Shown: in pieces, positions 1-29,656 of the stretch | Position numbering within the stretch: the first letter of the stretch is position 1 | Layout of the letters: each line of letters opens with the position of its first letter | DNA from: Syntrophales bacterium | GTDB lineage: Bacteria > Desulfobacterota > Syntrophia > Syntrophales > CG2-30-49-12 | Direction: 5' to 3' | NCBI GenBank assembly: GCA_030018935.1 | Contig: JASEGZ010000005.1 | Coordinates: 4,988 to 68,987 of the forward strand | DNA length: 64,000 bases | Position numbers and translations under genes: made by a program | Notes under the pieces: generated by a model | What the model was told of the DNA's origin: nothing | Databases searched by the model: none | What the model saw: the letters and a program-made list of their open reading frames with translations, nothing else

Positions 1-852
1 ACGACTGAAATCGGCCCTCCCAAAGGCGTAGACATCTCCGAAATGGTTCACCACATAGATTTGCTCAAGGAAAAGGTTGACGCTATTAACGTCACTGACC
101 ACCAGAGCTCAATGATGCGCTTTCCCTCCGTGGGTGGTTGTTTCCTGATAAAGGAACGTGGCGGTGAGCCTATCCTTCAGATGACTTGCCGGGACCGTAA
201 CCGGCTGGCGCTTCAAGCTGACCTTCTGCTGGCATACTCTAGAGGCATCACTAATGTGCTATGCCTTACTGGAGATTGTGTTGATGTAGGGGATCACAAG
301 GAAGCAAAGCCTGTTTTTGATTTGGATTCCGTGCAGTTGCTGAAAATGATCAGGACTATGGAATCAGGAACGGATGTGGCGGGGAACGCTCTCAAAGGCG
401 TTCCAAAATTCTGCCTCGGAGCCTCAGTTCATCCCGAAGCCGACTTTATTGATCCACAACTCGTCAAGTTTGAAAAAAAGGTTACAGCCGGGGCGCAATT
501 TTTCCAGACCCAGGGCATTTTTGACTTAGTGAGCCTTCGGAGGTTCATGCAATTTGCCTCCCCGTTTAACGTTAAAATCCTGGCGGGTATTATAGTCCTC
601 GCTTCAGCAAGGATGGCTCGATATATGAACGATAATGTCCCCGGAATAATTGTCTCTCAAGCCATTATCGATGAGCTAACTAATGCGGAGAAGGGCAAGG
701 GACTTCAGAAGGGAATCGAGATTGCGGCGAGATTTGTAAAAACCATTAAGGAAGAAAAACTGTGCCATGGTGTGCATATTATGGCCGTGGGCAGTGAAAG
801 GATAGTGCCTGATATCTTAGAGGCAGCTCAAGTGAGCGGAGCACATCGTTAA
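1..852 (+). CDS. metF: methylenetetrahydrofolate reductase-like protein (MetF family), 5' end cut by window edge
   Basis: Frame 1 is open from nt 1 (TTEIGPPKGVDISEM...), so the ATG at 43 is internal. The translated sequence DHQSSMMRFPS...MTCRDRNR...CLTGD...FFQTQ is typical of MTHFR barrels. Confidence 0.8.
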   Translation, partial: TTEIGPPKGVDISEMVHHIDLLKEKVDAINVTDHQSSMMRFPSVGGCFLIKERGGEPILQMTCRDRNRLALQADLLLAYSRGITNVLCLTGDCVDVGDHKEAKPVFDLDSVQLLKMIRTMESGTDVAGNALKGVPKFCLGASVHPEADFIDPQLVKFEKKVTAGAQFFQTQGIFDLVSLRRFMQFASPFNVKILAGIIVLASARMARYMNDNVPGIIVSQAIIDELTNAEKGKGLQKGIEIAARFVKTIKEEKLCHGVHIMAVGSERIVPDILEAAQVSGAHR

Positions 853-961
853 GGAGTACTTTAGTGAAGTAGATTAAATAAACATCGTATTGGAGGGACA
901 GTCGGAGGGAAACAGTGGCTCAAACAGAGTGGTTAAGTCTAATGGAAGGAGGTAAGGTAAA

Positions 962-2096: not shown

Positions 2097-2677
2097 GATA
2101 AACTCCTGGAAATCAGTTTAAGGTCCTCTTTTGCATTAACGTTGAAGAACATCCTCCCCTCTGGATCGAAAGATTTTATGATATCTTTGGAAATCCTGAA
2201 GATTTTTAATCCTCTGTAGAAACCTGTAATCTTCAATTTGTCCATGGTGATGAGTTTTTTGATGGAGGAAAGGCAACTTTTCGCGTAGATTGCATGCAGG
2301 GGCTGGAGTCCGTCGGCTGGATCAGGCGCCACAATATCGTAGGATCCGATGTGTTCCATCATGTATTCAATGAAATTTCTCTTTAAGAAGGGCATGTCGC
2401 AAGCCGATACAAAGGCATGTCCGTAAGAAGCGTAAAAAAGACCGGTATAGATACCCCCCAGGGCGCCCTTGTCTTTGAAGATATCGGTGACAATCTCGAC
2501 ATCCTGATCAAGGTAGGCAAGGGGAGAGTTGGTAACCAGAATGACTTCCTGGAAAATTTCTCTGAAAATCCTGACGATCCTGTCAATTAGCCGCTCATTG
2601 TCAATTTCAAGGAAGGCCTTGTCTGTTCCCATCCTTGTGTTTTTCCCGCCGGCTAAGATAATTCCTGTCATTTTCAT
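2084..2677 (-). CDS. mobA: molybdenum cofactor guanylyltransferase
   Basis: N-terminus GIILAGGKNTRMGTDKAFLEI and a size near 195 aa are typical of MobA. Confidence 0.85.
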   Translation of the reverse strand: MKMTGIILAGGKNTRMGTDKAFLEIDNERLIDRIVRIFREIFQEVILVTNSPLAYLDQDVEIVTDIFKDKGALGGIYTGLFYASYGHAFVSACDMPFLKRNFIEYMMEHIGSYDIVAPDPADGLQPLHAIYAKSCLSSIKKLITMDKLKITGFYRGLKIFRISKDIIKSFDPEGRMFFNVNAKEDLKLISRSLSCLA

Positions 2678-2849: not shown

Positions 2850-5165
2850 TTGATGATGATGAATAAGCATTTGATGATTTTGCCGTTAAGAAATATGGTC
2901 CTATTTCCTGGGATACAGGTGCCTTTATTGATAGGAAGGGGGGAGTCCATCAGGTTGGTCAAGGATGCCTGGGAAAAGAAAGAGTGGATTGGTGTGGTTG
3001 CTCAAAAAGATGCGGAGAAGGATGAACCGACACCGCCGAAGGACCTCTATTCAGTGGGCACCGTGGCGAAACTTTTAGATTTAGTGAAAGAGGACGAAGG
3101 GTTTCGTATTGTGGTGGAAGGCATGCAGAGATTTAGGATAGCCAGGTACCTTGAGTCCATCTATTACTTTGTCGCCGAGGTAGAGGTAATCAAGGAGGAA
3201 GAGGCGACCTTAGAAGCAAAAAGGATGATGCATGAGGTAAAGAAGGCAGCATTGGAGTTAGTTCAACGTGTCAAGATGCCGGCATCAGTGGCAAAGGCGG
3301 GAAAAGAACAGATAAATCAGATTTCTCATCCTGGTCAATTGGCAGACTGGATAACCGTTTTTGGTCCCTTTGAGGTGGAAAAAAAGCAGGAGATTCTGGA
3401 GGCAATAAATATTGAAGAAAGATTGAAAAAACTTTTGCACCTCCTTAAGGAAGCGGAAGTAGGGATAGATGTTAAAGAAGAGGCCGGGAAGGAGGTTTTT
3501 AAAACCCAGAGGGCTTATTGGCTTCGTGAACAGATTAAGGCAGCGCAAAAAGAATTGAAAGAAATGGGAGAAGCAGAGGTATCGGGAGAGGTATCTGCCT
3601 TGAAGGAAAAGATAGAGGAAGCCCAGATGACAGAGGAAGCCCAGAAAGCGGCCGAAAAGGAGTTAGACCGGCTGAGTTATATTCACCCGGCCTCGGCCGA
3701 ATACGGGACTATCCGAACCTACTTAGATTGGCTGATAGAAATCCCCTGGTCGAAGAGCACGGAAGACAATCTGGATATCGATCAGGCCGAAAAGATTTTA
3801 GATGAAGACCATTATGATCTGGAAAAGATAAAAAAGAGAATGTTGGAATATTTGGCCGTTCATCAACTCAAGCCGGATGTGAAAGGACAGATCCTCTGCT
3901 TTGTGGGGCCGCCCGGCACCGGCAAAACTTCCTTAGGCCGGTCTATTGCGCGAGCACTGGGCAGAAAGTTTGTCAGGATCTCCCTGGGGGGAGTCAGGGA
4001 TGAAGCAGAAGTTAGAGGTCATCGCCGCACATACGTTGGCGCTTTGCCTGGCAGGATCATCCAGCAGATTAGAAAGGCCGGCTCCAGTAACCCGGTTTTT
4101 ATGCTCGATGAAATGGACAAGATCGGAACTGATTGGCGAGGCGACCCTTCTTCCGCTCTCCTGGAGGTCTTAGACCCGGAACAGAATTTTTCTTTTTCCG
4201 ACCACTATCTGGAAGTTCCCTTCGATCTGTCCAGGGTAATGTTTATCGGTACGGCTAATTTGGAAGACCCGATTTTACCCGCTCTGAAAGACAGGATGGA
4301 GATTTTGCGCCTGCCCGGTTATACCCGGGAAGAAAAACTCAGAATTGCCAAACAATTCCTGATTCCCAGACAACTCGAAGGACACGGCCTTTCCCCAGAA
4401 CAGCTTGAATTTGAGGATGAGGCGGTAGAAGTGATTATCAGGGATTATACGAGGGAGGCCGGGGTCAGGAATTTGGAACGGGAGATCGCCAGTTGCTGTC
4501 GAGGGGTAGCTAAGGATATTGCCGCCAAAAAGATTGAGAAAACCAGGATTAAAGTTGCCAATCTCCACGAACTTTTAGGACCGATAAAATTCTTCTCAGA
4601 GCTGGCAGAGAGAACCTCAAAGCCGGGAATAGCTATCGGTCTGGCCTGGACCCAATACGGTGGGGAAATCCTCTTTGTGGAAGCTGCCAGGATGGAGGGA
4701 AAGGAGAAACTTACCTTAACCGGGCAGTTAGGTGATGTGATGAAAGAATCAGCCCAGGCCGCCTTAAGCTATATAAGGTCCAATATTGCTAAATTTAATC
4801 TGGAGGCTAATTTTTTTGAAAAGAAAGAAATTCATCTCCATGTCCCTTCCGGGGCAACTCCCAAGGATGGGCCATCAGCGGGGATAGCCATGTTTATCGC
4901 CTTAATTTCTCTCCTGACAAAGAGACCGACACGTGCAGAAGTAGCCATGACAGGCGAGATCACTTTGCGGGGTAGAGTTCTACCCGTTGGTGGAATCAAG
5001 GAGAAGGTTCTGGCGGCCAAAGAGGCTGGACTCAAGACTGTCATTCTGCCGAAGAGGAATGAGAAAGATTTAGAAGAGGTGCCAAAGGAAGTAAGAGATG
5101 TGGTGGAATTTAAATTTATTGAAGAGATGGAAGAGGCCATAAGGATAGCTCTGGAGGAAAATTAG
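2850..5165 (+). CDS. lon: ATP-dependent Lon protease
   Basis: 771 aa with an N-terminal LON domain (LPLRNMVLFPG), Walker A GPPGTGKTS, and the protease serine motif PKDGPSAGIAM. Confidence 0.97.
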   Translation: MMMMNKHLMILPLRNMVLFPGIQVPLLIGRGESIRLVKDAWEKKEWIGVVAQKDAEKDEPTPPKDLYSVGTVAKLLDLVKEDEGFRIVVEGMQRFRIARYLESIYYFVAEVEVIKEEEATLEAKRMMHEVKKAALELVQRVKMPASVAKAGKEQINQISHPGQLADWITVFGPFEVEKKQEILEAINIEERLKKLLHLLKEAEVGIDVKEEAGKEVFKTQRAYWLREQIKAAQKELKEMGEAEVSGEVSALKEKIEEAQMTEEAQKAAEKELDRLSYIHPASAEYGTIRTYLDWLIEIPWSKSTEDNLDIDQAEKILDEDHYDLEKIKKRMLEYLAVHQLKPDVKGQILCFVGPPGTGKTSLGRSIARALGRKFVRISLGGVRDEAEVRGHRRTYVGALPGRIIQQIRKAGSSNPVFMLDEMDKIGTDWRGDPSSALLEVLDPEQNFSFSDHYLEVPFDLSRVMFIGTANLEDPILPALKDRMEILRLPGYTREEKLRIAKQFLIPRQLEGHGLSPEQLEFEDEAVEVIIRDYTREAGVRNLEREIASCCRGVAKDIAAKKIEKTRIKVANLHELLGPIKFFSELAERTSKPGIAIGLAWTQYGGEILFVEAARMEGKEKLTLTGQLGDVMKESAQAALSYIRSNIAKFNLEANFFEKKEIHLHVPSGATPKDGPSAGIAMFIALISLLTKRPTRAEVAMTGEITLRGRVLPVGGIKEKVLAAKEAGLKTVILPKRNEKDLEEVPKEVRDVVEFKFIEEMEEAIRIALEEN

Positions 5166-5616: not shown

Positions 5617-6171
5617 CTTACTGTGCCGCAGCTTCGTCCTATCAAAAGTAAAAACATAGAAAGGTCGTTGCTTATGTCAAAAGGGAGGGGAGTCACAAGG
5701 AGACAGAAAGATATACCCCGCTTATTGAGGGAAAGAAAACAACTTGTGAAGGACAAAAAAAGGGTCAAAAAGAAATAATAAGCCGTGGAAAACTATTTTA
5801 CAGATAACGGGGCGGCTCAGTGGTGCGCGGTAGCGCGTCCGACGGCAGCCGCTGGTTAGGCCAACTCTGGCCTGGCACTGGCAATTTATAATTTTATGGA
5901 CGTCCCCACTCACCTCAACCTCAGTATTTCTTCCTCCAGAGCGTCTCAGGAGTCCTTTATCGCATCAATTTTAACATGACAAACGTTGCCAACACCTAAT
6001 TTTGCATACATTTCTTATCACATAACAACCCAATTTTCAATAGAAAAGACCCGCACCAGAAGTAACTCATAAAGTTGTACTTTACAGTTTTATTGTATTT
6101 CGTTAAACTAAGTAAAATCATCAGGCGGGTCTACGGAAATAGCATCCCCGCGACAGAAAGGAGCTTAAGTC

Positions 6172-26415: not shown

Positions 26416-26617
26416 ATCTAACGGTGACCTTCCTTTACCTGCACCACTCTAAGCTAAGCCCCAACGAAGGAGTAGTAGTAACGCCCCACAGGCATACCAT
26501 TTCTCTTGATGACTATTTCTCGTATCTTTCCCATGTTCCTGATCCGAGAGAAGAGATGGACATTTGCCGGGTGGTGTGGGGGCTGGGGGAGAAAATCCCC
26601 CGGCTACCCGATTAGAT
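26416..26617 (-). other. attC-like site 4 (tentative, unusually long) after the RHH-RelE cassette
   Basis: On the minus strand, ATCTAAT overlaps the relE stop (26617-26611) and GTTAGAT lies at 26422-26416. Arm pairing is only weak by hand. Confidence 0.3.
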
Positions 26618-26872
26618 TTCGCCTTTATAGACATTTCTTCGGTGACCAATTCTGAGGATAAGGATATCGTCACCTAATAATGCGTAAATTACCCGATAGT
26701 CACCTACTCGAAATTTGCGAAGCCCGGCAAATTGTCCTTTGAGGACGGGATTTGACTCAGGTTTTTTTAAAAGCTCCCGTTCAATTTGGTCGAGGATACG
26801 ACCAGCCTCTGCTTTTGAAAGCTTTTTTAAGTCGCGATGAACCGACTTTTTGTAGACGATATTATAAGCCAA
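26612..26872 (-). CDS. type II toxin, RelE/ParE family
   Basis: 86 aa. ...FRVGDYRVIYALLGDDILILRIGHRRNVY is a typical RelE/ParE C-terminus. It overlaps the upstream antitoxin by 11 nt. Confidence 0.85.
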   Translation of the reverse strand: MAYNIVYKKSVHRDLKKLSKAEAGRILDQIERELLKKPESNPVLKGQFAGLRKFRVGDYRVIYALLGDDILILRIGHRRNVYKGEI

Positions 26873-27080
26873 GAGATTTCCTTAGCTCTTTGCCAGAAAC
26901 TATAGGATCTGTTTTATCATGGAGCCGATCGAGAGCTACCTGTAGATCTGCATAATCTTCTATGTAGGACTCTAACGCTTTCTGGATTATAAAAGAGCGT
27001 GGTCTCTCTGTTTCCTTGGCTATGCTCTCCAATTGCTCGGATAGCTCCTTAGGGAGCCTAACGGATATGGCTGTACTCAT
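26862..27080 (-). CDS. ribbon-helix-helix (CopG-like) antitoxin
   Basis: ISVRLPKELSEQLESIAKETERPRSFIIQKALESY is an RHH fold signature. Confidence 0.8.
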   Translation of the reverse strand: MSTAISVRLPKELSEQLESIAKETERPRSFIIQKALESYIEDYADLQVALDRLHDKTDPIVSGKELRKSLGL

Positions 27081-27154
27081 GAAGCACCTCCTGATTCAAT
27101 TGTAATACAATGTATACGATAGTGCGTGAAATGTCAAGAGTATTTTATAGAGAA

Positions 27155-27227
27155 ATCTAACGACCAAACTGAGGGGTGCGAAAAAGCGTCAGCTTTTTTC
27201 GCACCCCTCTCCAGTGATTTGTTATGT
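27155..27227 (-). other. attC-like site 1 (73 bp)
   Basis: On the minus strand, R'' ACATAAC (27227-27221) overlaps the ORF stop and R' GTTAGAT (27161-27155) fits GTTRRRY. The internal arms caaactgaggggtgcgaaaaa / tttttcgcacccctctccagtgatttg pair with bulged bases. Confidence 0.6.
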
Positions 27228-27682
27228 CAAAATCCCCATATTTCTTCTGGGTCTTCAATATCAGGATCATCATATCTCTCCATTGTAGCAAGCCATTCTG
27301 GCATATCTTCCTTGATTGTCTGTTTCAATTCATCTAATGATTCCTTTGATATTTTCCCTTTTTCAAACATAAATTGATAAAATTTTTTTAGACTCGAAGC
27401 GTTCTCCTTTATAGCTGTTAGGCTTGCCCACATGGCTTTACGAATAAACCAATAACCCAGAAACCCTCCTATATTTCCAGCTCCATCAGCAGCTTCTATT
27501 GCCTCTTCATACAGAAGGAAATCATTGATATAGAAATCAATGTTTGAGCAGTGCTTTCTTGTTGTTTTTGCTGAAAGGTTCTTTTCCGCAAGCCAGCTTT
27601 CAAAATCTTTCAAAAGGGCTACATTCAGTTCTCGTATTCTTTTACAATCTTTTTCATATTGTTCATATGAGTCCATTATCAT
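27227..27682 (-). CDS. hypothetical cassette protein; possible stand-alone tyrosine-recombinase core-binding (SAM-like) domain
   Basis: 151 aa. The pattern LLKDFESWLAEKNLSAKTTRKHCSNIDFYINDFL ... SLTAIKENASSLKKFYQFMFEKGKI resembles integrase N-terminal domains. No catalytic domain is present. Confidence 0.5.
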   Translation of the reverse strand: MIMDSYEQYEKDCKRIRELNVALLKDFESWLAEKNLSAKTTRKHCSNIDFYINDFLLYEEAIEAADGAGNIGGFLGYWFIRKAMWASLTAIKENASSLKKFYQFMFEKGKISKESLDELKQTIKEDMPEWLATMERYDDPDIEDPEEIWGF

Positions 27683-27698
27683 TATTCCTTTTCTTTAG

Positions 27699-27837
27699 AC
27701 ATAACGGCAGGCATGAGTGGCTGGGAAAAGCTTGCGATAACCTTGGAAACTACATCAAAAGTTTGCTATTTAGACGGCCTGTGCAAAAGAAAAAAATCGC
27801 CGGCTTTTACCAGTCCATCTCAATGCCCTTGTTCGCT
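27699..27837 (-). other. attC-like site 2 (139 bp)
   Basis: On the minus strand, R'' is AGCGAAC (27837-27831) and R' is GTTATGT (27705-27699). The arms ataacggcaggcatgagtggctgggaaaagc / gcttttaccagtccatctcaatgcccttgttcg are imperfectly complementary. Confidence 0.5.
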
Positions 27838-27841
27838 ACTC

Positions 27842-28117
27842 TTAGGCAACTTCGAGTTGGAGGTGTTTGCCTACCGCTTGAGCATAATTTACTAATGTAG
27901 AGAGGCGGATGTCTTCTGCATGGTTTTCAATCCGGGAGATGGCAGATTTCTTAGTACGCAATTTCTTAGCCACTTGTTCCTGGGTGAAGCCAGCTTCAAT
28001 ACGAGCCTGTTTCAGGAGGATACCAATCTTGAATTGTTCATATCCTTTGTCAAAATCTTTTGCAAATTGGGGGCTTTGCTTCTTTCTTGTTTCAATGTAT
28101 TTATCCAGATCGTCCAT
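27842..28117 (-). CDS. higA: XRE-family HTH antitoxin (HigA-like)
   Basis: [32 protein letters not shown] is an HTH. The gene is downstream of the toxin (toxin-first order). Confidence 0.8.
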
Positions 28118-28124
28118 CTTCTAT

Positions 28125-28469
28125 TTACCTCCTGCTCAAATATTCTTTCTTCCGCTTTTCTGCCAGTTTAATCTCCTTTAAAGGAATTTTCTGGCTCTTC
28201 TTTTGGAAGGAGTTGGTCAGTATGATCAACTCTTGACCATGAAAGAAGCCAAGAAGACGGAAGGTGTTTCTTCCCACATCAACTCTGGCTTCCCAAATAT
28301 CGTTTGTCTTGACCAGCTTCTTGAGGTATTTAGATGGAACCTGATCAATCTCTCGAATCAATTTCAATACCCATGCTATCTTGGTCGCCTGTGTGTCTGT
28401 CAGCCTATCCAAGTGCTCTTTAACAGGACACTTGCCTGACGCAGTCCGATAGAATGAGATTGTTTTCAT
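28125..28469 (-). CDS. higB: HigB/Gp49-like RelE-superfamily toxin
   Basis: 114 aa. FYRTASGKCPVKEHL...IWEARVDVGRNTFRLLGFFHGQELIILTNSFQKKSQKIP is typical of the phage Gp49-like toxin family. Confidence 0.8.
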   Translation of the reverse strand: MKTISFYRTASGKCPVKEHLDRLTDTQATKIAWVLKLIREIDQVPSKYLKKLVKTNDIWEARVDVGRNTFRLLGFFHGQELIILTNSFQKKSQKIPLKEIKLAEKRKKEYLSRR

Positions 28470-28528
28470 GATTATAAGGTAAACAAATATGTGAACATTG
28501 TCAAGATATGAATTTTAAATCTTCAGAC

Positions 28529-28586
28529 AACGAACGGCAAAAATCAGCCGGCGCTGCAAGCGATTGGCTGGATTGTTTTGTTAGGT
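28529..28586 (-). other. attC-like site 3 (58 bp)
   Basis: On the minus strand, R'' ACCTAAC (28586-28580) fits RYYYAAC perfectly, while R' GTTCGTT (28535-28529) is weak. The central stem is cagcc/ggctg. It lies 20 nt after the PAP2 stop. Confidence 0.5.
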
Positions 28587-28605
28587 GCATTCTATATCTC
28601 TTGTT

Positions 28606-29169
28606 CTACCAAGTGCGACTCAGCCTGATGCTGTAATACTTGCCATCGGCCTCCGCCTGAACATACCAGTCTTTGTATGGTTTGGTAAAGACGTAGCTGC
28701 TGAGGATACCGATGCCGGCGCCGACTACAACATCATGTACATGATGCTGTCGGGCCTCAACACGACTGTAAGCCACAAAGGACGCCGCTACATAAGCCGG
28801 TATCCCATAGTCCCAGCCATAACGTTTGCGCATGAACTCGGCGGCGGAGAAGGAAATGGAAGTGTGTCTCGAAGGAAAGGAATGTCTTCCGCCGTTGGGA
28901 CGACTCTCGTTCACAGTATATTTGAGGCCGTAGGTGACACCGAGAGTAAGTGCTGCCGATTCCCCAAACTGTAACGCTCCTGCGCCGTCCTTGTATCCTA
29001 TTGTCAGCCCGACCGCGGTCGCTGGCAGAACAAACTGCAACACATCGCCTGCGGCCTCCACCCCGCCGCTTGCTTTTGCTTCTACAATAGTGATGAGGCA
29101 CAGGAAAAGTCCCACGAGGAAAGTGGCAGCATGATAGATGTAAGGTGCCGAAATACGCATTGCTTTCAT
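28606..29169 (-). CDS. PAP2 family membrane phosphatase
   Basis: All three PAP2 motifs are present: [13 protein letters not shown] and [12 protein letters not shown]. The protein has multiple TM segments. Confidence 0.85.
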
Positions 29170-29446
29170 GGTGAAGTCCCTCCATCATCAGGATCTTGAG
29201 GATGGGTTCGGAGAGGTCTACATCCCCGAGTCCCTATCCCGGAAATACCCCAAGGATAGGCGGGAGACCGGCTGTCACACCCTGCGCCATAGTTTTGCCA
29301 CCCACATGCTGGAAAACGGGGTGAACATCCGCGTGCTCCAGGAACTCCTCGGCCACGCGGACGTGAAGACCACCGAGATTTACACCCATGTCATGGCCCG
29401 GGACATCCGGCAACTGCAAAGCCCGCTGGACCGCTTGCCGGGCTGA
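29168..29446 (+). pseudogene. intI: integron integrase (IntI) remnant with internal deletions
   Basis: [14 protein letters not shown]...[40 protein letters not shown]...SPLDRL matches, from memory, the ALERKYP motif and the C-terminus of IntI proteins. The segment of about 60 aa between RKYP and HTLRHSF, and the whole N-terminal half, are missing. Confidence 0.75.
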
Positions 29447-29656
29447 CCGCCGGTGCCAGGTCACACCCCGTGGCTTTCTTCTCGTTTCCGCCCTGTGTGA
29501 ACCCTCTTCTTTCATCCTTCTTTCTCCTCCCTTGGAACAGGACGTTTTTTTGTGCTATGCTGAAGGGCAGGCAGGAGGTAGGTCTTGTTTTCCGACCAGT
29601 TGGCCAATCTCTCAGCATAGTACATTTCTAAATCCTCCCATTTTTAATTACAGTAG

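Follow-up and report, generated by a model that had tools for sequence, protein, structure and literature searches.

Organization of the Locus

The window discussed here, that is, the whole 64-kb stretch of DNA from a Syntrophales bacterium, contains an island of seven open reading frames (ORFs) that very probably represents a decayed chromosomal integron: a remnant of the integron integrase gene intI and, to its left, genes for a PAP2-family phosphatase, a HigB/HigA toxin-antitoxin (TA) pair, a 151-aa protein and a RelB/RelE TA pair, accompanied by attC sites (Table 1). An ORF map and family scans of the window place all seven ORFs at the coordinates and on the strands that an earlier annotation, made from the sequence alone and referred to below as the original prediction, had given them. 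The six genes to the left of the intI remnant all lie on the strand opposite to it, as had been noticed, and the families then assigned (IntI fragment, PAP2, HigB/HigA, RHH/RelB and RelE/ParE) were all recovered by the family scans. The island had also been described as AT-richer than its flanks; this holds for positions 26750-28250, to which low GC (0.37-0.41) is confined, but not for the PAP2 gene and the intI remnant, the GC of which is 0.51-0.59.

Table 1. Features of the island, with the cassette intervals defined by the crossover points and two predicted regulatory elements.
Feature	Coordinates	Strand	Remarks
intI pseudogene remnant	29168-29446	+	92-aa tyrosine-recombinase fragment; Phage_integrase / TIGR02249
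141-nt deletion junction in intI	29270-29274	+	single GGCTG copy left
PAP2-family phosphatase gene	28606-29169	-	PF01569; first-cassette position
HigB toxin, Gp49 family	28125-28469	-	Gp49 59.9 bits, above cut-off
HigA antitoxin, HTH_3	27842-28117	-	HTH_3 42.3 bits, above cut-off
151-aa core-binding (SAM-like) domain protein	27227-27682	-	PF13102 27 bits, cut-off 22.3
RelB-like RHH antitoxin	26862-27080	-	NF048017 55.3 bits, above cut-off
RelE/ParE toxin	26612-26872	-	ParE_toxin 46.9 bits, TIGR02385 35.8 bits, above cut-offs
attC1	28529-28586	-	58 nt; R'' ACCTAAC, R' GTTCGTT
attC2	27699-27837	-	139 nt; R'' AGCGAAC, R' GTTATGT; long variable centre
attC3	27155-27227	-	73 nt; R'' ACATAAC, R' GTTAGAT
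Probable remnant of a fourth attC	26582-26617	-	R''-like ATCTAAT, 5-nt spacer, 9-bp hairpin
HigBA cassette	28534-27705	-	830 bp, between crossover points
Cassette 3 (151-aa gene)	27704-27161	-	544 bp
Cassette 4 (RelBE)	from 27160 onwards	-	distal end eroded
Terminator-like hairpin	29458-29476	+	just 3' of intI stop codon
Predicted sigma-70-like promoter	27109-27137	-	TTGACA-17-TACATT, 10/12; inside cassette 4, upstream of relB; consensus match only

The Integrase Remnant

The 92-aa fragment belongs to the integron integrases. TIGR02249 (integron integrase) is its top NCBIfam family, with 116 bits in two stretches, against 79 bits for XerD and 76 for XerC, and the best solved structure is VchIntIA/IntI4 (2a3v), aligned over residues 186-228 and 262-320. 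Alignment with the intact IntI of a related locus, L091, identifies the remnant as residues 197-230 plus 278-335 of a 335-aa integron integrase; 85 of the 92 retained residues (92%) are the same, the C-terminal 59 aa are 100% identical, and the two genes share 88-95% nucleotide identity. The remnant thus groups with IntI and not with Xer, as had been anticipated. The HxxR, GH and Tyr motifs are kept. A complete integron carries a functional intI, and five intact relatives score 425-444 bits on TIGR02249, the cut-off of which is 265; the remnant falls under it.

Two segments are missing, in agreement with the original prediction except that the internal loss, put there at about 60 aa, amounts to 47 aa. 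DNA alignment with L133, L091 and L097 resolves it as an in-frame deletion of 141 nt between two GGCTG repeats of the intact relatives. The deleted segment (residues 231-277) is the IntI-specific WQWVFP...DPRSG..RHH stretch, which the closest database proteins (WQWVFPA..DPRSG..RHH..KKxG) and the closest intact relatives possess, and of the additional domain that sets IntI apart only the first residues (..SRKYPKD) are left. This insertion was reportedly found by MacDonald and colleagues in 2006 to contact extrahelical bases. The N-terminal 196 residues of IntI were not found anywhere in the 64-kb window, which holds no further intI either. Counterparts of the stretches next to intI in the relatives are likewise absent from the island, homology to related platforms starting only at 29170, beside the PAP2 start codon; judged by this missing homology, the attI of the clade being undefined, neither attI nor the cassette promoter (Pc) of a complete integron appears to survive, as had been proposed. 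On the other side of the gene, some 90 nt of 3' flank, including the terminator-like hairpin, are conserved with related integrons to about 29536 (blastn homology to L091, L093 and L097 ends at 29495-29536).

Decay of intI is also seen in related sequences. Two of these were compared as proteins only. P0017, a 106-aa IntI fragment of another lineage (70% identity), is missing the same 47 aa internally (..REPG|CHTLR..); in P0101 the deletion is a different one, with its right-hand end at the same motif. The GGCTG repeat encodes a conserved Gly-Trp and a conserved Gly-Cys, and loss of the IntI-specific domain may therefore recur by slippage, as far as these sequences suggest. Frameshifts or stops break up several of the closest intI relatives into two or three ORFs (L081, 2511-3509; L082-L086), and many contigs (the starts of L085-L090) end about 420 bp upstream of the C-terminal intI fragment, as expected where assemblies break at strain-variable arrays. 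The ORFs of about 145 aa that encode the C-terminal part of IntI and recur among the best protein matches were considered as a functional family of mini-integrases, an idea that was rejected since they turn out to be the last piece of frameshifted or stop-split intI genes in their contigs; it is disfavoured also by a metagenome scan with one close intI relative, in which most of the 80 loci recovered carry an intact intI of 330-345 aa. In L091, a 45.6-bit attC match (2323-2381, minus strand) abuts or overlaps the 5' end of the intact intI ORF, where attI would be expected.

attC Sites and Their Covariance Models

Sites of the attC type, in which R'' (RYYYAAC) and R' (GTTRRRY) core heptamers enclose an imperfect palindrome, were searched for with covariance models. 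Rfam has no attC family, and models specific to this integron clade, built solely from sites of related integrons and none from the window, served in place of the attC model of IntegronFinder. The seed consisted of 20 aligned attC sites from arrays upstream of related intI genes; ten pairs of its stems show compensatory changes, and 86.9% of its cells are paired compared with 73.3% in shuffled and 25-43% in slid controls. The first model, R1, recovered 66 sites in 52 integron loci, all but one of them (65/66) on the strand opposite intI. The second, R2, was built from those 66 sites; its consensus, gCCUAAC...GUUAGGc, includes two one-sided bulge columns. R2 was run over the full window on both strands with filters off, and in a control of 979 kb of unrelated loci from related bacteria it gave two matches with E<=1, one of which, preceding a HicA-like ORF, may be a genuine attC.

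Three of the four sites proposed as attC are matched on the cassette strand, well above what chance would give, and these are the top three R2 matches of the whole window, at exactly the predicted ends. attC1 scores 51.2 bits with R2 (E 5.8e-12) and 47.6 bits with R1 (E 2.8e-11) and is the site nearest to the consensus of the clade; attC2 scores 30.7 bits with R2 (E 4.2e-6), with all 16 model pairs standard; attC3 scores 30.6 bits with R2 (E 4.6e-6) and 18.9 bits with R1, and its fold has a z-score of -6.5. The only other R2 match in the window with E below 2 lies outside the island, at 5861-5802 on the minus strand (20.9 bits, E 0.0026). The quoted heptamer boxes are all where they had been placed, including the two R'' boxes said to overlap stop codons: ACATAAC of attC3 overlaps that of the 151-aa gene by one base, and ATCTAAT covers that of relE. 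The three matched sites thus combine R'' and R' cores, an imperfect palindrome and a covariance score; together they span 1.43 kb (27155-28586), all on the opposite strand to intI, and each ends a stretch that is read away from intI, as cassettes are. When the bottom strands (here the plus strand) of attC1-3 are folded as DNA, every single- or multi-base bulge falls on the 3' arm, attC2 having three single-base bulges on that one arm. In structural work on VchIntIA, one-sided bulges of this kind are reported to determine which strand is chosen for recombination.

Two less specific searches were of little use. A scan for generic AAC...GTT hairpins gave 617 candidates in the window, among which attC1 ranked about 30th, and was dropped as non-specific; an Rfam scan of the window between positions 24 and 32 kb returned noise only.

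A Crossover Signature Across the Array

Integron integrases cut between the G and the TT of the R' box (G|TT), which assigns the six bases at the end of R' to the following cassette; the R' of one site should therefore complement the R'' of that cassette. Related arrays behave in this manner: 27 of 39 consecutive site pairs are complementary at all four outer bases (4.4% in random pairings), while R'' and R' of the same site match poorly. The island carries the same signature. GTTCGTT (R' of attC1) complements AGCGAAC (R'' of attC2) at three of the four positions, GTTATGT (R' of attC2) complements ACATAAC (R'' of attC3) at 4/4, and GTTAGAT (R' of attC3) complements the ATCTAAT box over the relE stop codon, again at 4/4. 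This complementarity fixes the cassette boundaries given in Table 1.

Contents of the Cassettes

HigB/HigA and RelB/RelE are predicted, from their sequences, to be genuine HigBA and RelBE/ParDE modules: in both, the matching families are adjacent, the ORFs are intact and the scores exceed the cut-offs, and relB and relE overlap by 11 nt. Consensus matching predicts a good sigma-70-like promoter before relB and weaker ones before higB. A homologous HigB/HigA pair (59% and 64% aa identity) is present in another integron, L134, between attC matches at 5732-5851 and 4609-4730. The alignment of the two cassettes begins in the promoter region and extends across higB and higA into attC; they have in common the R'' AGCGAAC and the cassette start GTTCG(T/C)T, and their neighbours differ. 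Over the stem of attC2, three double changes relative to L134 are compensatory (CTGG/CCAG to CCGG/CCGG, TGG/CCA to GGG/CCC and GAG/CTC to AAG/CTT).

The 151-aa protein, taken for an orphan in the original prediction, proved to belong to a large family, with more than 1300 homologues of about 149 aa at 65-91% identity and a PF13102 match above the cut-off. These homologues, often annotated as "recombinase", occur in Nitrospirota, Thermodesulfobacteriota, Marinimicrobia and metagenome-assembled genomes (MAGs) labelled archaeal; the family corresponds to a stand-alone core-binding (SAM-like) domain of tyrosine recombinases, without the catalytic domain. An AlphaFold (AF2) model of the protein (pLDDT 88.5) has as its best folds the N-terminal core-binding domains of XerA (rmsd 1.7 A, 84 columns) and VchIntIA (2.1 A, 87 columns), with weak E-values of 0.4-2. 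That the protein might be the displaced N-terminal half of the IntI of this locus was considered and rejected: there is no significant similarity, and its family is independent and widespread. Locus L189 has four cassettes with an attC match after each; this gene (2457-2976) is among them, and its attC has the same R'', ACATAAC. The Nitrospirae contigs with a homologue that were compared with it (L181-L188) carry the gene without attC.

Flanks and Related Loci

The chromosomal surroundings of the island consist of housekeeping genes, with an FMN-reductase/low-molecular-weight-phosphatase fusion and an M48 peptidase on the left and a B12-binding subunit with a methylmalonyl-CoA-mutase-type large subunit on the right. 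For the left flank, the best matches among genomes come from Syntrophaceae/Syntrophales MAGs (81-86% aa identity). Following the synteny from that side was uninformative, as the 80 genome loci sharing the FMN-reductase/LMWPc protein have no common neighbours with the window, even at 86% aa. Searches for proteins identical to the intI remnant, the B12-binding protein or the FMN-reductase protein gave no match. On the right, a short contig (L133, Ga0210056_1058796) is 90% identical at the nucleotide level from intI into the B12-binding gene and displays the same junction; the chromosomal site of the platform is thus common to the window and this relative. The intI of L133 carries a group II intron (Rfam RF02003, 49.2 bits; 556-880, minus strand) that breaks the gene at about codon 205, runs antisense to it and is inserted about 20 nt from the point at which intI is truncated in the window. 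Group II introns have been proposed as participants in cassette formation.

The cassettes vary among relatives, as the original prediction had required of an integron. Among strains with intI pseudogene and right flank in common, L082 and L084 differ from L083 in their cassettes, and in L134 the HigBA cassette, identically bounded, sits among other neighbours.

Interpretation and Proposed History of the Locus

Taken together, these findings make it very probable that the locus is a decayed chromosomal integron of an uncultured Syntrophales-like deltaproteobacterium and, more specifically, a cluster of attC sites lacking an integron integrase (CALIN) to which an intI pseudogene is still attached. 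As a CALIN should, it combines at least two attC sites spaced by less than 4 kb with the lack of a functional intI in the vicinity. The original prediction had named three outcomes that would speak against a decayed integron (no attC hits from a covariance model, a recombinase remnant grouping with Xer or phage integrases, and a gene order conserved in all relatives without variation at cassette boundaries); all three were looked for, and none was encountered.

The history that we infer would begin with an intact integron beside a methylmalonyl-CoA-mutase-type operon, with intI directed rightward and the cassette array extending leftward. One deletion would have removed codons 1-196 of intI, attI, Pc and everything up to the start codon of PAP2; a second, of the 141 nt between the GGCTG repeats, would have taken away the IntI-specific domain; and the far end of the array would have been eroded inside the last attC. 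What remains is three structurally intact attC sites, which delimit the HigBA and 151-aa cassettes and mark the start of the RelBE cassette, with PAP2 in first position. Such a locus would be unable to recombine alone, and its cassettes would be frozen unless an IntI acted in trans. Both TA cassettes are probably expressed from promoters of their own and may stabilize the segment by post-segregational killing; the PAP2 and 151-aa genes, deprived of a platform promoter, would depend on read-through or on internal promoters.

Several points weigh against this interpretation or limit its reach. At the predicted fourth site (26617-26416), R2 finds no match even in a 361-base search, and the 202-nt version adopts a branched minimum-energy structure rather than one hairpin (z -1.4). 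The box at 26617-26611, over the relE stop codon, has AAT in place of AAC, and the 9-bp hairpin at 26582-26604 is followed by no L'/R' (GTT) partner. A complete fourth attC of 202 nt was therefore rejected; we read the site as an attC truncated on its distal side, of which ATCTAAT is probably a true R'' relic, and this leaves the distal boundary of the array undefined. The covariance models apply specifically to this integron clade, and the E-values they give are approximate. For the question whether the island is present or absent at this chromosomal site, a single short syntenic contig, L133, could be compared. Lastly, the GC of PAP2 (0.51-0.58) is host-like and its closest homologues lack attC, and PAP2 may therefore not be a true cassette, a question taken up in the next section.

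Whether the locus is really dead can also be asked. It is possible, if doubtful, that attC1-3 still serve an integrase acting in trans and encoded by another integron, or by a mobile element, of the same genome, the cassettes then forming an exchangeable pool. The three sites have kept all their model pairs, their AAC and GTT cores and their one-sided bulges, and the isolated attC-like site at 5802-5861 could be a trace of IntI activity in another part of the chromosome; moreover, half of CALINs are found in genomes encoding IntI elsewhere (Cury et al. 2016, PMC4889954). Against this stand the lack of any other intI in the 64-kb window and the loss of attI, without which excision would be possible but not re-insertion at this place.

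Is the PAP2 Gene a Cassette?

PAP2 had been taken for the first cassette. The gene does occupy that position and encodes a protein that is full length relative to its 187-aa homologues, but its cassette status is a matter of inference, none of the ten homologous PAP2 loci compared (L171-L180, in four genomic contexts) having an attC. Its closest DNA relatives, L172 (2539-3116) and L173, are 91% identical at the nucleotide level over 28593-29170 only, that is, from the start codon to 7 nt before R''. At its 5' end the gene adjoins the truncated intI: where its relatives have their native ribosome-binding region (..CAGAAGGAGCATCAC), the window has antisense intI sequence that happens to provide a GGAGG, and the joint appears to lie at a TCAC(C) motif present in both partners. 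At its 3' end, the stop codon is 20 nt from the R'' of attC1. The simplest account is that PAP2 is a true first cassette, the 5' end of which was lost together with attI and half of intI in one deletion.

The main competing explanation is that PAP2 is a chromosomal gene which illegitimate recombination, independent of IntI, brought in between attC1 and what is left of intI, in which case the true cassettes would be only HigBA, the 151-aa gene and RelBE, and attC1 would be an orphaned cassette end. We regard this as the less likely course of events, although a good deal speaks for it. The GC of the gene resembles that of the host flanks and is unlike the 0.37-0.41 of the other cassettes; homology to the attC-less copies of L172 and L173 stops at the start codon and 7 nt before R''; copies 84-91% identical in nucleotide sequence occur in at least four unrelated genomic contexts, with attC in none of the ten; and no close homologue was found in about 90 integron loci. 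Such an origin would, on the other hand, require two precise joints in the right orientation where a true cassette requires one deletion, and the distance from stop codon to R'' is normal cassette spacing. IntI, furthermore, never recombines on the R'' side, so that a gene contiguous with R'' is by definition the content of that very cassette.

The same features allow a third and improbable reading, in which PAP2-attC1 is a snapshot of cassette birth, with attC1 acquired by a resident gene in this lineage. It draws on the host-like GC, the 91% identity to copies without attC, the end of homology 7 nt before R'' and the position of attC1 as the best fit to the clade consensus. If it were true, the way in which a resident gene gains an attC could be read off directly from the junction at 28587-28593. 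To our knowledge, the addition of attC to a resident gene is an unsolved step in integron biology, and the PAP2-attC1 junction is a possible lead on the origin of cassettes.

The weakest alternative, that there is no integron here at all and that an Xer- or phage-type recombinase fragment happens to lie beside ordinary terminators or REP-like repeats, can point to the XerD and XerC matches of the fragment, to the abundance of generic AAC...GTT hairpins in the window and to the resemblance of attC3 to a terminator stem, but is hardly credible given that the IntI profile scores higher, in two stretches that include the ALxRKYP segment, that the remnant is nearly identical to a bona fide IntI, that the clade-specific models match only attC1-3 within the island over a background of 2 per 979 kb, that the crossover signature is present, and that another integron holds a homologous HigBA cassette with a compensated attC stem.

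Comparison with Known Systems

As a relic of an integron, the locus is an ordinary example, decayed integrons and CALINs with intI pseudogenes being already well documented. In the survey that accompanied IntegronFinder, a CALIN required at least two attC sites separated by less than 4 kb and the lack of a functional integrase, and intI pseudogenes were found near 15 of 279 CALINs (Cury et al. 2016, PMC4889954). Our locus resembles those cases: at least two attC sites fall inside 4 kb, the integrase is not functional, and a recognizable C-terminal IntI pseudogene lies within 10 kb. It differs in that the pseudogene is directly contiguous with the array, in that two deletions are mapped to the nucleotide, and in its origin from an uncultured Syntrophales-like lineage rather than a complete reference genome.

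About one third of intI genes have been reported to be pseudogenes (Nemergut et al. 2008, PMC2426708). Pseudo-integrons, in which intI has been hit by stops, frameshifts or indels, as in that study and in the Xanthomonas integrons, are alike in that a resident intI has decayed; in the window, intI was inactivated not by a point lesion but by two deletions, one of which removed more than half of the gene together with attI. Compared with VchIntIA/IntI4 (2a3v), the remnant is devoid of the N-terminal domain, the region of the first catalytic Arg and the IntI-specific insertion.

TA modules are the commonest cargo of decayed integrons and CALINs. TA cassettes are also classic cargo of chromosomal integrons (PMC11023631; bioRxiv 10.1101/2022.08.03.502626). 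The locus resembles the superintegron type of Vibrio in its chromosomal position, in the orientation of its cassettes, which point away from intI, in TA cassettes equipped with promoters of their own (predicted in our case) and in attC sites close to a clade consensus. By comparison with the tens to hundreds of cassettes of that type, the array of the window comprises three or four, its integrase is destroyed, and attI and Pc are absent; the regulatory role proposed for TA cassettes during recombination thus cannot operate here.

The locus is of interest as a clear-cut case, each of the two deletions that inactivated intI having been located to the nucleotide. It also supplies a clade-specific attC set for the integrons of Syntrophales and other Thermodesulfobacteriota, and it provides evidence that HigBA and stand-alone core-binding-domain cassettes circulate between integrons of different hosts.

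Other attC-Like Sites

The R2 match outside the island (5802-5861, minus strand) lies in a gene-less spacer (5617-6171) between a 143-aa ORF and a macro-domain gene and is accompanied by no cassette ORF. Its sequence, GCCTAACCAGCGGCTGCCGTCGGACGCG..., is identical at 25 of 27 positions at the 5' end to an attC of integron L104, and one possibility is that a cassette inserted off-site left this single attC behind. A much weaker R2 match lies nearby on the plus strand (6020-6108, E 2.3). The closest genome relative, Syntrophaceae bacterium CG2_30_49_12 (L001), has a 31.4-bit attC match at 4314-4383 on the plus strand, just upstream of a HicA-like toxin ORF (4424-4678); integron cassettes thus occur elsewhere in this lineage too.

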